DNA from: a virus
Lineage: Duplodnaviria > Caudoviricetes
Direction: 5' to 3' (one strand)
Length of the DNA: 64,000 bases
IMG/VR virus record: IMGVR_UViG_3300027533_000667
Location: 13,626 to 77,625 of that record
This document shows positions 52,306 through 62,687 of this stretch, piece after piece. Position 1 is the first letter of the stretch; each line of letters opens with the position of its first letter. The position numbers were made by a program, and so were the translations under genes. Under the pieces are notes generated by a model. The model saw only the letters and a list, made by a program, of their open reading frames with translations. It had not been told where the DNA came from and did no database searches.

Positions 52306-53214
52306 ATGGGCATCAGAGTTCTAATCAAGAAAAAGCGAGGATCGGAAGGCAGAGTATTAGGTTCAGCAAATCTAAAGTGGGAGAACAGATTCTACGTGGA
52401 CGCTTATCTGCTGGGCTCTCAAGGAGCCTCTCTTAACAAACTTGCCAAAGCAATTAAAGTGGACCCGCATACTGTGAGCAGATGGTTCATCAAAAGGCCA
52501 TCGTTCAGAGAAGCCTACGAACGTGGCAAAGAATGGCGTGTGAAAAGCATGAATCCGGAAAGCGAGGATTTCATCGAATTCGTTTATGGCAGACTGCCGC
52601 CAAAGCTTCGTCGATGGTGGAAGAAGATTCAGCAGTGGGAATTGACAGACACGGACGGCACCAACTTCAAAGCACGTAACCTAATCATGAAGATGACCAA
52701 GCAACAACGGCAGCACTTGTTCATTCATGCTTTGGTGAATTCATCTTTCAACGTCAGTAATGCTCTAAAGTCAGCACATCTCACCTACGACATGTATCGT
52801 CGCTGGGTCGAGCGAGACAAAGACTTCATAAAGATGCTAAACGAAATTCACGTTCACAAAAGGAATTTCGTTTCCGGTAGTCTATTCAGGCTAATCGGCA
52901 ACGGATCGGAAGCCGCCACGATCTTCGCCGCTCGTAACTTGTTGAAGGACGAAGGATTTGCTGATACTAAGAACGTCGAAGTTTCCGGCAGAATAGACCA
53001 CGCTCATTACAACATGGTGGAGATTCTGAAGCACGTCAGTCCAGAAGCAAAGAAAGAATTCTTGCGTGCAATACGAAAGCAAGAACAGGGCCAATTGGAA
53101 GACGTTGACAAGCCGAACATAACAATAACCAGAATCACTCAAAGAATGGGGATAGACGATGAAGAAGACACAACAGCTGAAGTTGTCGAAGCACAGGAAG
53201 TTGACGGCGACTGA
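52306..53214 (+). CDS. terS: terminase small subunit-like protein (two HTH-like regions)
   Basis: Upstream of and overlapping terL; LAKAIKVD..TVSRW and NVSNAL..AHL...YRRW HTH patterns; AATIFAAR...GF pattern. Confidence 0.7.
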   Translation: MGIRVLIKKKRGSEGRVLGSANLKWENRFYVDAYLLGSQGASLNKLAKAIKVDPHTVSRWFIKRPSFREAYERGKEWRVKSMNPESEDFIEFVYGRLPPKLRRWWKKIQQWELTDTDGTNFKARNLIMKMTKQQRQHLFIHALVNSSFNVSNALKSAHLTYDMYRRWVERDKDFIKMLNEIHVHKRNFVSGSLFRLIGNGSEAATIFAARNLLKDEGFADTKNVEVSGRIDHAHYNMVEILKHVSPEAKKEFLRAIRKQEQGQLEDVDKPNITITRITQRMGIDDEEDTTAEVVEAQEVDGD

Positions 53215-54688
53215 GGCACTTGTAATTGCCTCACTATGCCGAGATTCGTTCGAGTATTTCGTTAGGCGATTTTGGGAAGAGATCGTGCCGGAGAAACTCA
53301 TATGGAACTGGCATATGAGTTATCTGTGCGCCAGACTACAACGTCAAGCAGAACGAGTATTCGCTGAAATGCCGAAAGAACGGGATGAAGTCATCAACAT
53401 CCCACCAGGTACAAGCAAATCCCTAATCTGTTCCGTGATGTTCCCGATATGGGTATGGCTGAACATGCCATCAGCCAAGACTCTCGGAGCATCCTATTCT
53501 GAAAAACTGTCGCTAGACTTATCCCGCAAATCCCGTGATCTTGCCAACAGCGACAACTTCCGAATCTGCTTCCCTGAAATCGAGATCAAAGAAGATCAAG
53601 ATGCCAAATACTACTTCATGAATACTAACGGCGGTGCCAGATATGCTACCGGCAGCAAAGGCACCGTCACTGGAATGCACTTTCACTTCATAATTATCGA
53701 CGATCCGATTGATCCGAACGAAGCAATCTCAGAAGCTGAATTGGCAGCAAAGAACCACTGGATTCGCCAAACCCTTAGTTCCCGCAAAATCGACAAGCGA
53801 ATCACCGTCACATTCCTAATCATGCAGCGCCTGCACGAAAACGACCCGACTGCTGAATTCTTGAAAAAGGAAAAGGTGTTCCACACCAAAATCCCGATCA
53901 GCTTGGAGTTCGAGGTCAGGCCGAAAATCCTAGAGAAATTCTACAAGAACGGATTGCTCGACCCTAAACGAATGCCTGAGTCCGTCGTAGCCGAAGCAAG
54001 AAGAGACTTAGGTGAATATGGATTTGCCAGTCAGTATGGGCAAGACCCAGTGCCCGCCGGTGGCGGTCAATTCCAAACCGACAAGCTAAGAATCGGCACC
54101 CCACCATTCCGAATGAAAGCAATCGGCCGATATTGGGACTTAGCCGGCACACTTGCCAAACAAGCAAACAACATCAACAAAATGTATGCCAGAACATCCC
54201 AAGGCAATTCTGCCACAGGCGGACCCAAATTCACTGCCGGCGTAAAAATAGGAATTGCTGAAGATGGTCGTGTCTTCATCCTACATGTCGCCCGCTTCCG
54301 TTTAGATGTAGGCACCCGAAACAGAGAAATCCGCCGAATCTCCGAAGACGACGGTCACGACATCCCAATCGGAATTGAGCAGGAAGGAGGATCGGAAGGC
54401 TCCCATCAAGGGGTAGTCCAGCATCTAGTAGGGCACCGAATCAAAGTGTTCAAGCCTAAAGGTGATAAAGGTATTCGTGCCGAGCCACTTGCCGATCAAG
54501 TCAACAACGGCAACGTATGGTTGGCTCCTGGAGATTGGCACGACGCTTTTATCCACGAAATGAAATTCTTCCCTTATGGTGCTTTCCTCGATCAAATAGA
54601 TGCTGCCAGTGGATGCCTAGAAATGATCGCCACGAAAAAGCGTAGACGCCGTGTAATCCGTAAACGCAGTGAATACATCATTGCCTAA
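53159..54688 (+). CDS. terL: terminase large subunit
   Basis: INIPPGTSKS (Walker A), IIIDDPID (Walker B), IMQRLHENDP, YWDLAGT, DQIDAASG nuclease motifs. Confidence 0.92.
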   Translation: MKKTQQLKLSKHRKLTATEALVIASLCRDSFEYFVRRFWEEIVPEKLIWNWHMSYLCARLQRQAERVFAEMPKERDEVINIPPGTSKSLICSVMFPIWVWLNMPSAKTLGASYSEKLSLDLSRKSRDLANSDNFRICFPEIEIKEDQDAKYYFMNTNGGARYATGSKGTVTGMHFHFIIIDDPIDPNEAISEAELAAKNHWIRQTLSSRKIDKRITVTFLIMQRLHENDPTAEFLKKEKVFHTKIPISLEFEVRPKILEKFYKNGLLDPKRMPESVVAEARRDLGEYGFASQYGQDPVPAGGGQFQTDKLRIGTPPFRMKAIGRYWDLAGTLAKQANNINKMYARTSQGNSATGGPKFTAGVKIGIAEDGRVFILHVARFRLDVGTRNREIRRISEDDGHDIPIGIEQEGGSEGSHQGVVQHLVGHRIKVFKPKGDKGIRAEPLADQVNNGNVWLAPGDWHDAFIHEMKFFPYGAFLDQIDAASGCLEMIATKKRRRRVIRKRSEYIIA

Positions 54689-54701
54689 CAAGGAGTTTAA
54701 T

Positions 54702-54953
54702 ATGGTAGACAAATGCATGATTGTAGAAAACGAAGCAGCTGCTGCAATACTAAGACTAAACTTGCCGGACGACTGGATGGTCATTTCTGTTGGCAGCGCT
54801 GTAACAGGACACCGTTTCAAATATGCCGTGATTGCCTGCCAGATTGATCTAACCGATTCCAAAACAAAAGAATGGTTGGACCATGTATTGTCTTGCATAG
54901 TCCGAGGAACCGTATTGGGTTTGCCGAAAGATTATCATTGGGGTGATATGTAG
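54702..54953 (+). CDS. hypothetical protein
   Basis: AAGGAG SD. Confidence 0.55.
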   Translation: MVDKCMIVENEAAAAILRLNLPDDWMVISVGSAVTGHRFKYAVIACQIDLTDSKTKEWLDHVLSCIVRGTVLGLPKDYHWGDM

Positions 54954-54959
54954 GCATAA

Positions 54960-55430
54960 ACTGAAAAATTCTCAAAAATAGGGATATAACGCCCATATAT
55001 ATCCCAAATCTCCATACATCTCCCCATATACCACATATTTAATTCCATGCCCGGCAGGACCTAAAAATTCTACCATATTGGATAAACGCTCCTCCCACAC
55101 ATCTTACCTATCTTGCCTATCATACTCGAACCACCCCGTTCGCCTAGGCCGACTGCCACTTTGACAGTGGTCAATTCCTGACCACCTACTTTTCATGCCA
55201 GGCATGAATGTTGAGGTCCGGCAGCAGAATTGTGGTAAGATGGGAGGAATGGGCAAGATAGGTATCTGCCGATATGACAGATGGTCACTTTATGCTCACC
55301 TGTGGCCAGAACGTGACCTGCCACTTTGTACTACAAACTGTCAATCTGACAGGTTTCATGCCAGACAATAGAATACCTATTGTCGGGCAGCAGAAGTTGA
55401 GGGCGGGCATCAATTATTCCCATCTTTGAG
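54960..55430. repeat. non-coding region with direct and inverted repeats (candidate packaging/terminus or origin site)
   Basis: TTTCATGCCAG x2, CTGCCACTTTG x2, GGCAGCAGAA x2; TACCTATCTTGCC / GGCAAGATAGGTA inverted pair; several 6-8-bp hairpins. Confidence 0.6.
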
Positions 55431-55436
55431 AATCTT

Positions 55437-55465
55437 TTGGGTTTGGCGCGGTATGTGCTTAGTAT
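55437..55465 (+). promoter_or_regulatory. putative promoter TTGGGT-N17-TAGTAT
   Basis: The predicted start (~55471) coincides with the first RNA hairpin. Confidence 0.45.
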
Positions 55466-55469
55466 TCCA

Positions 55470-56000
55470 TCGACGGGGGACCGTCGTAAAATCCATCCCC
55501 TCGGGTCCGGCCTCGCCCACGGCCGTTTACCCTGTCAGTATCGAGTCAGGTCTACGGACCTCCGGACGGTTGATCTTTAACAACTTGGAAGCGCTTACCG
55601 GCCTTGACGGGGTTTAACTCCCCCTCAGTATGTAGGATTGTCGTTAGGATGACGAATCCCCCATTTCCTATGTACTCTGTATCGTGCCGATCCATCGGGA
55701 TCAATTGGCCATCGGTAAATCTGGAAAGAGAACAGGGGAATGATCTCCCCGACGACCTCAAGTACAGTGCGGTGAGATTCGCAAGGTTAGGGACAGCGCG
55801 AGAACGGTCAATACGGGGAGGATTCCCCCGTCTACCGTATATGTGTCCTGTATATCAAAACAGGGTTCACATGAATCACAACAACAACAGTCTGGGCGAG
55901 CGTGAGGAACGCTGTAACGGATTCAACCCCGCGCCCAGTTCTGTTCCCTCACTCCGAGGGGACTATCGCGTAGGCGCTTAAATGCGCCCGAAAGGGTTTG
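55470..56000 (+). ncRNA. candidate large structured RNA of unknown class (or a very long structured 5' leader)
   Basis: More than 12 contiguous stems; GGGA, GGAA, GAAA and cUACGg tetraloops; G-U pairs valid only on +; a multi-helix junction; no credible ORF. Confidence 0.6.
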
Positions 56001-56004
56001 TATC

Positions 56005-56685
56005 ATGGAAAACGTCATCGTTGAATCGGCCGCTGTTGAATCGACTGCTCCAGTGTTGAGCGTAGCCGCACAGAAAGCGCTGGAAAGCGCTAAGGTTCAA
56101 GCGGTTATCATCCGCGCCAACAAGGCCGCGGTCCGATCGGCGGACATGGACCAACGGGTCGCCAAACGCAAGGAACGATTGTCGTCTCAGCTGGTCAAGA
56201 TCACGAACGCAAAGAAAGGCGTGAACACTGACCAGATCGTCAGGGATTGTACTCGCGACAAAATCGTTGCCGAACGGAAAATGGCGGATGCGGATCAAAC
56301 GAAAGCGGCGCAGAATCACGTCAAGCTTAACGCATGGGCGAGGGTTCAGCTGCGAAAGGCCGAAATCAAAATTGAGGCCGAAGCGAATGGACAGACCTCA
56401 ACCGGAACCGTATGGACAGTAGAAACGGTTGACGGGGTTTACACTCCGGTTGACGTGGCCTCTGTCGCTCGCCAGATCAAGCGCAGTAAAGTTGTAACGA
56501 TGGGATTTCAAACGGCGATGGGAATGTTCGGCGAGGAGTGTATCGACGCGATGAACGATCGCGGCGGGGTTCTGGTATGCAACGAAATGCGCTGGATGTT
56601 CAAGGTATTGGGCGACGCCAATACGGTTGAATTCAGCAAAGTCAAGATTGTGAAAGTGGAAACGACGGAAGTGACTGCCGAATAG
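56005..56685 (+). CDS. orphan protein, basic Ala/Lys/Arg-rich helical N-half and beta-rich C-half
   Basis: 226-aa ORF directly after the structured RNA and before a terminator. Confidence 0.7.
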   Translation: MENVIVESAAVESTAPVLSVAAQKALESAKVQAVIIRANKAAVRSADMDQRVAKRKERLSSQLVKITNAKKGVNTDQIVRDCTRDKIVAERKMADADQTKAAQNHVKLNAWARVQLRKAEIKIEAEANGQTSTGTVWTVETVDGVYTPVDVASVARQIKRSKVVTMGFQTAMGMFGEECIDAMNDRGGVLVCNEMRWMFKVLGDANTVEFSKVKIVKVETTEVTAE

Positions 56686-56714
56686 TCCAGTCTGCTGAAT
56701 CGCCCAATTTCATG

Positions 56715-56750
56715 AACCCTACATAAATCCCCAGTTATGTAGGGTTTTTC
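56715..56750 (+). terminator. rho-independent terminator
   Basis: AACCCTACATAA / TTATGTAGGGTT 12-bp stem followed by a T run. Confidence 0.85.
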
Positions 56751-56997
56751 GTTGCTTTTGATCGGCATAAACTGAGAGGAAAAGCAAAGCGAATGTGGGA
56801 CCATACAATCACATCATATCGATCTACCATTAGGTCTATATTGGTCCCATATCCCCCATTACCCTCATTCCCGTACACATTACGCGTAAATCTGCAGGCA
56901 CATAGGCCAGCAATTTATTGCGCCTTGCATCGTTGTTCGTTGGGTTTCTTGCATTTTTTGAAACATTCGCCCAAACCTTTTAACTGGAGTGGCTGCG

Positions 56998-57321
56998 ATG
57001 ACTCGTTTCCCTTGCCTAGCGGACAATCCGGGGAAGTTGACCCAAGCAGAAGCAAATTGCATTTGGACTTGGGTAGACTGGCAAGTTGATTATGTTCAAG
57101 AACAACTCGTGCGCGACGGTTGGATGATTAAATGTGAATGGGATGGCGAGTTTTGGATGGAAGGGGAGAATCAGACCGGCAATGTTTGGGAATTCGCCTG
57201 CCGAAATGGAGTAGTCAAAATCGACGGATCGCAATACATCCCAATGATTGCGTATCTGTTGGCACACTCGTTGCGTGGAATGGTTCCACTTTACATTCAG
57301 GCAAACAAAGAACACAAATAA
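56998..57321 (+). CDS. hypothetical early protein (Trp-rich)
   Basis: GGAG SD. Confidence 0.55.
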   Translation: MTRFPCLADNPGKLTQAEANCIWTWVDWQVDYVQEQLVRDGWMIKCEWDGEFWMEGENQTGNVWEFACRNGVVKIDGSQYIPMIAYLLAHSLRGMVPLYIQANKEHK

Positions 57322-58356: not shown

Positions 58357-58590
58357 ATGTATCTTCAAGGCGATTGGACAATGGCAGGCACGAAAGAAGA
58401 ATTGGAACGTGATATCGGCAACGGCTTCATTGTCCGCGTTGGCTGGACTGAGACGGTATCCGATTCGATCTATTGCGAAATGATCTCGGATGATCGCCCT
58501 GCCAGGTATCGCGTTGTCATTTGGAATGAGGGTGGCGTCCGCGGTAAGATCGCGGCGATTGTTGACAAACCTGCTTACGTGGAGAGATGA
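58357..58590 (+). CDS. small hypothetical protein
   Basis: Operon context. Confidence 0.5.
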   Translation: MYLQGDWTMAGTKEELERDIGNGFIVRVGWTETVSDSIYCEMISDDRPARYRVVIWNEGGVRGKIAAIVDKPAYVER

Positions 58591-58770
58591 TGCTTCGATT
58601 AGTTGGTCTATTCTTGGGCGACGTATTGGATTGTACGTCGGTCCTTATCGAAATCGCTGATGTGTTCGGCGGTTTGATTTTGTTTGAGTGGACGGTAGGC
58701 ATTCACAATGCAATCGCGTCTGCTCAACTCGTCTTACTTTCAATTGGATCATGATATAAGGAACAATGAC

Positions 58771-62486: not shown

Positions 62487-62687
62487 ATGAACTTTGAAAC
62501 GTACCGCAAACGTGGCAAAGGTTGGGAATATCTAGGCGTAGTAAGTGCTGAGACGTGTCGCGACGCAGCACAGATGATCGGATACATTCACAATTTGAAA
62601 GTCATCGGTGTGCGGCCAGAAGATAGTCGTGATATAATTCAAGTCTATCGATTCTTGCGTGTGCCAGAACTCCATCACGGAAAATAG
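62487..62687 (+). CDS. small hypothetical protein
   Basis: GAGGA SD. Confidence 0.55.
   Translation: MNFETYRKRGKGWEYLGVVSAETCRDAAQMIGYIHNLKVIGVRPEDSRDIIQVYRFLRVPELHHGK

Follow-up and report, generated by a model that had tools for sequence, protein, structure and literature searches.

Positions 55437-56750 of the window, as the 64,000 nt of phage DNA analysed in this study are called here (the final 64 kb of an IMG/VR provirus record of 77.6 kb), probably represent a real and new module composed of a large structured RNA and a protein gene, ORF226. An earlier note on this DNA had proposed a large and novel structured RNA in association with an ORF. The proposal gains strong indirect support from the leaders found upstream of related genes in other phages, whereas no significant similarity of the window leader to these leaders was obtained. 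In the relatives, it is very likely that the gene is indeed coupled to a structured leader with a function. For the window, a functional structured leader coupled to ORF226 is on balance the favoured reading. The two parts of the module, the RNA and the ORF226 gene, would be made as one transcript that is stopped at 56714-56746.

Layout and predicted fold of the unit

No gene is called between orf94 and ORF226, a stretch of 1055 nt (54954-56004), and 3' of ORF226 a series of small ORFs follows on the plus strand. The stretch is without a called gene in each of three assemblies made independently (the window, L006 and L007, all of the same phage). The boundaries drawn in the earlier note, with a leader followed by one ORF and a terminator, hold, and the strong terminator was confirmed (Table 1). 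Since no terminator was found between the leader and ORF226, while a strong one is located after the ORF, both parts are presumably co-transcribed. The unit resembles moron-type units in having its own terminator and a composition unlike that of its flanks: the G+C content is 0.54 in both leader and ORF226 compared to 0.45 and 0.43 in the flanking regions, although 15% of the genome's windows are equally GC-rich. Other copies of the window lineage (L006, L007 and run X2) are near-identical, with 3 SNPs only, two of them in the loop of hairpin 55735-55750 and one adjoining its stem. Among 50,697 phage records searched with blastn, no close relative of the window was matched, and the leader/ORF arrangement is absent from the loci collected via the terminase (L002-L005, 30-46% identity).

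Table 1. Features of the unit and its upstream region (positions in the window)
Feature	Position	Strand	Remarks
Small and large terminase subunits (terS, terL)	52306-54688	+	upstream of leader
94-codon ORF (orf94)	ends 54953	+	directly after terminase genes
Terminator-like hairpin	55167-55185	+	7 bp, 4 GC, T-rich tail; -10.1 kcal/mol
Best sigma-70-like promoter candidate	55346-55374	+	CTGACA-N17-TAGAAT, 10/12; consensus may not be that of the host
Promoter candidate of the earlier note	55437-55465	+	TTGGGT-N17-TAGTAT, 7/12; coincides with local G+C rise
Three simple 5' hairpins	55471-55486 (GGGA loop), 55508-55525, 55548-55561 (UACG loop)	+	not above chance alone
Domain 1 (predicted)	55574-55793	+	long-range closing helix 55574-55600/55770-55793, approx 22 bp, 3 G-U
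T-loop-like hairpin	55609-55623	+	loop UUUAACU; inside domain 1
11-bp hairpin	55627-55676	+	two G-U; inside domain 1
Hairpin	55686-55709	+	inside domain 1
Stem of the earlier note	55720-55729	+	
Hairpin	55735-55750	+	inside domain 1
Domain 2 (predicted)	55796-55971	+	closing helix 55796-55801/55966-55971, P = 0.62 (RNAfold)
Nested hairpin	55804-55838	+	inside domain 2
Hairpin	55840-55873	+	stem 55841-55872 of the earlier note; inside domain 2
Three-way junction	55886-55945	+	inside domain 2
Hairpin	55946-55960	+	inside domain 2
Last hairpin, GGCGC/GCGCC	55973-55988 (element 55973-55996)	+	adjoins ribosome-binding site
Stem of the earlier note	55987-55996	+	
Ribosome-binding site GGG	55994-55996	+	8 nt 5' of ATG
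ORF226	56005-56685	+	member of 12-protein family (P0001-P0012)
Intrinsic terminator	56714-56751	+	13-bp stem (56714-56746), 8-nt loop, U run; -16.8 kcal/mol

All 11 stems that had been read from the sequence were recovered in place. As modelled, the first approx 540 to 620 nt of the transcript would form three hairpins at the 5' end, followed by two neighbouring multi-helix domains, each with a long-range closing helix, and by a last hairpin at the ribosome-binding site. The closing helix of domain 1, which begins at UUUAACAACUUGGAA, was obtained in the MFE and the centroid structures with pair probabilities of 0.7-0.8 (RNAfold) and is missing from the minus-strand fold. The inner helices of domain 2 reach 0.64-0.99 (RNAfold).

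Folding energy compared to shuffled sequences had been named in the earlier note as a point on which the RNA could fail. A moderate excess was found overall and a strong one in the 3' 200 nt, whereas the 5' half shows none. In 55466-56004, 43 hairpins of at least 5 bp were counted (28.7 ± 7.2 in shuffled sequences, P = 0.03). The 3' 200 nt contribute 21 hairpins compared to 8.6 after shuffling (P = 0.007), while the 22 hairpins of the 5' 335 nt are not above chance (18.8, P = 0.32). The MFE z-score of the 568-nt leader (55437-56004) is -1.9 on the plus strand and -2.4 on the minus strand, that of 55570-55975 is -2.5 and -1.75, respectively. When the leader was folded in pieces of 150 nt, only 55725-56024 was over-structured (z = -3.5, -4.5 and -2.2 on the plus strand). 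The leader of one relative (L008), with a fold proven by covariation, has a z-score of only -1.5, which is weaker than the -2.5 of the window, so that a modest z-score is no argument against structure.

The protein family and the leaders of its relatives

ORF226, taken for an orphan in the earlier note, has 11 homologues, which were found by phmmer and a profile search. With phmmer, two distant homologues were detected among 1.84 billion representatives (P0002 at 7e-17), and the profile search brought the number of family proteins to 12, with lengths of 195-226 aa, in addition to one 86-aa fragment. The members are 31-44% identical to ORF226, the homology of which extends over the full length and includes the family motifs SADMDQRV.KR..RL and G.EC...ND...V.CNEM (alignments A1 and A3). 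In the AlphaFold model of ORF226 (mean pLDDT 73), a long helical hairpin (residues 29-127) is followed by a small alpha/beta domain (137-212). A charge split is kept across the family, with a basic N-domain (pI approx 10) and an acidic C-domain (pI 4.2-4.9). Sequence searches of Pfam, PHROG, NCBIfam, PADLOC and the PDB gave no meaningful match for the family. With the predicted fold of ORF226, nothing was returned by Foldseek at E ≤ 0.001, no usable match was obtained from the ESM Atlas, and helical hairpins of a generic kind occupy the top rows of VIA-align (Z 9.8 and below); a recognisable RNA-binding fold was found neither with Foldseek nor with VIA-align. The scans of IMG/VR and of JGI metagenomes yielded no further family members with DNA.

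In each of the 11 loci in which 700 nt or more can be read upstream, the window included, a gap without called genes precedes the family gene on the same strand. Where the gap of a relative could be read completely, its length ranges from 702 to 1264 nt (L008, 1007 nt; L011, 746 nt; L012, 702 nt; L013/14, 1140 nt; L015, 1060 nt; L017, 780 nt; L018, 1061 nt; L019, 1047 nt; contig of P0005, 1264 nt), and at least 747 nt are present in L016. The window has the same arrangement, a gap of at least 700 nt directly 5' of the family gene on the same strand. All relatives possess a hairpin followed by the Shine-Dalgarno (SD) sequence, as does the window, and the 43 nt readable upstream in L010 contain this terminal hairpin and SD as well. 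The phages of the relatives have a G+C content of 64-69%, and in the fetched loci they have only the ORF226-family gene and one 55-aa ORF in common with the window.

The gaps of nine high-GC relatives are 68-89% identical over 560-720 nt and differ by frequent indels not divisible by three. RNAalifold predicted a 13-bp long-range helix, P1, which closes a domain of approx 250-330 nt and in which 8 pairs are changed on both sides, together with inner helices and a T-loop-type hairpin. Within the P1 domain, 90.1% of the cells are paired compared to 30-45% with slid partners, and 21 compensatory pairs were counted compared to 3-7, values reached by none of 500 shuffles. A second, 3' domain was resolved in the six sequences of group A (96.3% paired compared to 37-61% with slid partners; 14 compensatory pairs compared to 2-5; reached by 0 of 500 shuffles). 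It contains a helix P2, a T-arm-like hairpin (85 nt 5' of the ATG) and covarying hairpins 5' of the SD. In the RNA of the relatives, 35 G-U cells stand against 11 A-C cells, an excess that points to the coding strand. Peripheral domains differ between the groups, the link to the protein being constant. No Rfam model matched this RNA; together with the covariation, this leads to the conclusion that the relatives carry an undescribed multi-domain RNA of approx 650-700 nt 5' of the family gene. Covariation among homologues, suggested in the earlier note as a check, is thus strong in nine relatives, whereas the window lineage has just its 3 SNPs to offer.

Several further observations were made on the relatives. 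A conserved AUCGGA in group A could pair with either a 5' strand or the UCCGG after the T-arm hairpin and might act as a switch. A tRNA-like element is located 3' of the ORF in all relatives with downstream sequence; a real tRNA at this place was rejected, as ARAGORN detected none and the tRNA-Sec model gave only 22 bits. TTGACAAC was discarded as a -35 box, because initiation at that site would truncate the covarying strand of P1. Matches to a conserved 23-nt RNA motif (12 in genomes, 11 in metagenomes, none in viral sequences) are attributed to chance, since no fetched stretch carries the family protein or the RNA profile.

The leader of the window was compared to this RNA by several models. 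nhmmer with the profile of the relatives (A2) gave no match in the window. The best match of a covariance model (R1, comprising the 5' hairpins and the junction) in the 1.2 kb upstream was obtained at 55530-55608 with 5.2 bits (E = 0.17), while the held-out L011 was recovered at 60.7 bits as a control. With small HMMs of the junctions, the window leader ranked 5th within the 64 kb for the 5' junction (E = 1.1), and nothing was found in the window for the middle and 3' junctions. As neither the profile HMM nor the covariance model matches are significant, the window RNA is not filed as a proven member of the family. Inside the upstream region, which had been defined beforehand by synteny, the best covariance model and HMM match falls on UUUAACAACUUGGAA (55577-55591), which resembles the invariant UUGACAACUCGAA of the relatives; likewise, GCGCGAGAAC of the window resembles GCGAGAGAAC of the relatives. 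In the relatives, an ACAAC junction motif is followed by P1, which closes domain 1, and by the adjacent P2 (in a GCG.G.GAAC context), which closes domain 2. When the window leader was folded as a single sequence with RNAfold, P1-like and P2-like closing helices were directly adjacent to each other, a resemblance noticed post hoc. The order of elements in the prediction is the same, with three 5' hairpins, two adjacent closed domains and a hairpin at the SD, and the three 5' hairpins parallel three covarying hairpins located 5' of the junction motif in the relatives. Domain 1 is smaller and domain 2 larger than in the relatives, and the 3' tRNA-like domain is absent. The window leader may well be a diverged counterpart of the relatives' RNA. 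The G+C content shared by leader and ORF226, with the family gene and the 55-aa ORF as the only common genes, fits a co-transfer as a module.

Alternative readings and comparable systems

According to the favoured reading, the RNA would work together with its protein, and the basic helical-hairpin domain would most likely bind the folded leader. Binding might occur in a ribonucleoprotein or at an autoregulatory operator, and the 3' hairpins may gate translation. An RNA-protein pair is favoured because the RNA far exceeds known cis-regulators in size and in modularity, because its peripheral domains vary around a constant protein link and because the pair is present in otherwise unrelated phages. 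Only tentatively, and with clearly less confidence than is placed in the coupling itself, the RNA (550-700 nt) and the basic helical-hairpin protein may be regarded as a new phage ribonucleoprotein, a mobile machine that would be produced by a unit of its own where the early region begins and would serve host takeover or counter-defence. Such a ribonucleoprotein would be of the type represented by OLE-Oap or omega-RNA-IscB, without being related to either.

It is unlikely that the leader acts purely in cis as a riboswitch, thermosensor or translational gate, with a host metabolite, factor or temperature controlling ORF226 translation and a protein that is no binder. Most conserved bacterial 5' structures are cis-regulators, and the RNA has the appearance of one in that it always directly precedes the gene and shares its strand, with no terminator in between, with a hairpin adjoining the SD in every member and with a possible switch in the alternative AUCGGA pairing of group A. 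The length of 550-700 nt with several closed domains, however, is far above that of known riboswitch and leader classes, none of the riboswitch models in Rfam gave a match, a conserved anti-SD pairing was not found, and the peripheral domains differ by group, while the tie to the protein is constant. Somewhat less probable still is that 55437-56004 consists of regulatory or spacer DNA and an ordinary long 5' UTR, the hairpins being mostly due to chance and the relatives' RNA being unrelated or lost. The missing profile and covariance model similarity, the z-score of only about -2, alike on both strands for the 568 nt, and a 5' half not above chance are in line with this explanation, as is the adjoining 54954-55436 with its richness in operator-type repeats. 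It is opposed by the recurrence of a gene-free stretch of approx 1 kb in this position, seen in each of the 11 loci of the rare gene family, by the over-structured 3' 200 nt (z to -4.5, P = 0.007), by the predicted domain order, which parallels that of the relatives, and by the equally raised G+C content of leader and ORF.

The leader is very unlikely to be a decayed or unrecognised coding sequence, such as a donor pseudogene or the 125-codon TTG frame at 55604-55981. Although this frame is open and has the G+C content of ORF226, no Pfam or PHROG match was obtained, the gene callers passed over the stretch in all three assemblies, and the relatives display both base-pair covariation and indels that are not multiples of three. 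The lowest probability is assigned to a diverged member of a known RNA class (group I or II intron, RNase P, tmRNA, GOLLD, ROOL, OLE or HEARO), in spite of the size and ornate look of the RNA, its T-loop-type hairpins and its GNRA and UNCG loops. None of the 4227 models of Rfam 15 matches the relatives' RNA or the window, which was scanned at the gathering threshold over its whole length and, with E values of up to 10 allowed, in 54600-57100. ARAGORN detected no tRNA or tmRNA gene in the window, L006, L008, L009 and L010. The statement of the earlier note that the RNA could not be matched to tRNA, tmRNA, RNase P or intron cores is upheld for the window. A cobalamin or SAM-like riboswitch, which had been considered because of the GGUGCAAGNCC hairpin, found no support in Rfam.

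An RNA-protein pair in cis is most simply modelled on autogenous ribosomal-protein leaders (50-200 nt), which are structured, mimic rRNA sites and are bound by the protein encoded downstream, but the size and modularity of the leader described here exceed autoregulatory need. The C4 RNAs of P1/P7 and the CI RNA of P4 are antisense regulators of approx 70-80 nt encoded in the leader of the operon they regulate. The location in a leader and the tRNA-like features (here in the relatives) are shared with the present RNA, which is, however, 8-10 times larger and lacks the tRNA-like parts in the window copy. Both C4 and CI are named as RNase P substrates (PMC3858429; PMC3378863).

Among the large ornate RNAs, GOLLD and ROOL are carried by phages and prophages (10.1101/2024.12.08.627333; PMC5737381). 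They resemble the RNA described here in being several hundred nt long, multi-domain, supported by covariation, phage-borne and of function not known, and in having tRNA-like elements nearby (here in the relatives). In contrast, GOLLD and ROOL are free-standing genes without a fixed protein partner and form RNA-only assemblies, whereas the present RNA is always located 5' of one protein gene and matches no Rfam model. HEARO (omega-RNA) and IscB (PMC9755519) offer another parallel, a large structured RNA directly 5' of a co-inherited ORF, the pair moving together. The partner here is a helical-hairpin protein of 195-226 aa without a nuclease domain, neither a HEARO model match nor transposon ends were seen, and the pairing is known from sequence. 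OLE offers a third parallel, as a structured RNA of approx 600 nt that relies for its function on dedicated small proteins (Oap) with genes next to its own (PMC3413148). The chromosomal location in extremophilic Firmicutes, the action at the membrane and the Rfam model of its own, all of them properties of OLE, do not hold for the RNA of this study.

Large intricate RNAs of bacteria and phages (OLE, GOLLD, ROOL, raiA, HEARO) are few, and each of them opened new biology such as RNA-only cages or RNA-guided nucleases. Large phage RNAs as such are known; what is new here is that such an RNA, structured as it is, has an obligate partner in a single small protein. The candidate class comprises about 10 loci in otherwise unrelated phages and 550-700 nt with several covarying domains and T-loop and GNRA features, and it is strictly linked to one uncharacterised protein family. 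This linkage offers a testable RNA-protein pair, small enough for cryo-EM and genetics, and bears on the use of structured RNA by phages early in infection.

Promoter candidates and the upstream spacer

The promoter that the earlier note had placed at the first bases of the unit is weak: it matches the consensus at 7 of 12 positions and was not listed by the promoter scan, while the candidate at 55346-55374 scores 10/12 (Table 1). The spacer upstream of the unit (54954-55436) contains many repeats and inverted repeats of the operator-DNA type. The hairpin at 55167-55185 is predicted to end the terS-terL-orf94 transcript and to mark the upstream limit of the regulatory spacer of the unit. The 10/12 promoter candidate overlaps one copy of a 14-nt motif that is present three times.

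Elements flanking the family gene in the relatives

A tRNA-like element is located directly 3' of the homologue of ORF226 (family gene) in all relatives for which downstream sequence is available. It comprises an acceptor-type stem and a T arm of canonical form, with the sequence GGUUCGAUUCC or one closely similar to it. No tRNA was called by ARAGORN in these post-ORF elements, and that of L008 scored 22 bits (E = 0.17) against the Rfam tRNA-Sec model and 15.8 bits against the mascRNA model. The element might serve as a signal for processing or for the 3' end, or else be the remnant of an att site. In the window, a plain terminator is found at the corresponding place, whereas the relatives carry the tRNA-like element.

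The leader RNAs of the relatives differ close to the start codon. In group A leaders, a T-arm-like hairpin (GGGGG-UYCRAUU-CCCCC) follows immediately 3' of a covarying helix, approximately 85 nt upstream of the ATG, while group B leaders (L015, L017 and L018) have a GNRA-capped three-way junction at this place instead. Since the invariant AUCGGA of group A has two alternative pairing partners, either the 5' strand (P1b) or UCCGG 3' of the T-arm-like hairpin, these pairings may constitute a conformational switch.

Coordinates of features in the relatives' loci and in the window
Feature	Position	Remarks
tRNA-like element	L008:8620-8686	3' of family ORF
tRNA-like element	~50-60 nt past stop codon	likewise in L011, L012, L013, L015, L017, L018, L019
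Covarying helix + T-arm-like hairpin	L008:7876-7931	aligned positions in L011, L012, L013, L016, L019
14-nt motif TTYCATGCCMGRCA	55043, 55191, 55354	window spacer, 3 copies
Second repeated motif GTCSGGCAGCAGAA	within 54954-55436	window spacer, 2 copies
Long inverted repeat	55088-55120 with 55234-55264	window spacer
Long inverted repeat	54964-86 with 55415-37	window spacer
Long stem GGGACCA...UGGUCCC	~56798-56849	window, non-coding, past terminator

Non-coding DNA on both sides of the unit

Several repeats occur in the spacer that separates the unit from the terminase operon (54954-55436), and this spacer looks like operator or promoter DNA; the site in it that best resembles a promoter overlaps the 14-nt motif at its third occurrence. 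On the minus strand of 55275-55499, folding z values as low as -4.2 were obtained. Downstream of the terminator, approximately 240 nt (56750-56990) are non-coding, of which the first ~175 nt fold strongly in 150-nt windows (z = -5.8 at 56700, terminator included, and -3.7 at 56775).

Further similarities between window and relatives

The covariance model of the relatives' 5' hairpins and junction motif (R1) matched the window weakly at 62569-62617 (11.1 bits, E = 0.28). The sequence resembles the junction motif (UUCACAAUUUGAAAG...GUGUGCGG) and lies within a called gene; the match is probably due to chance. A hydrophobic 55-aa ORF is encoded at 58587-58754 of the window, with 42-48% identity to small ORFs that, in L017 and L018, lie 0.6-1 kb 3' of the family gene. 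Among the fetched loci, no gene other than this ORF and the family gene is common to window and relatives.
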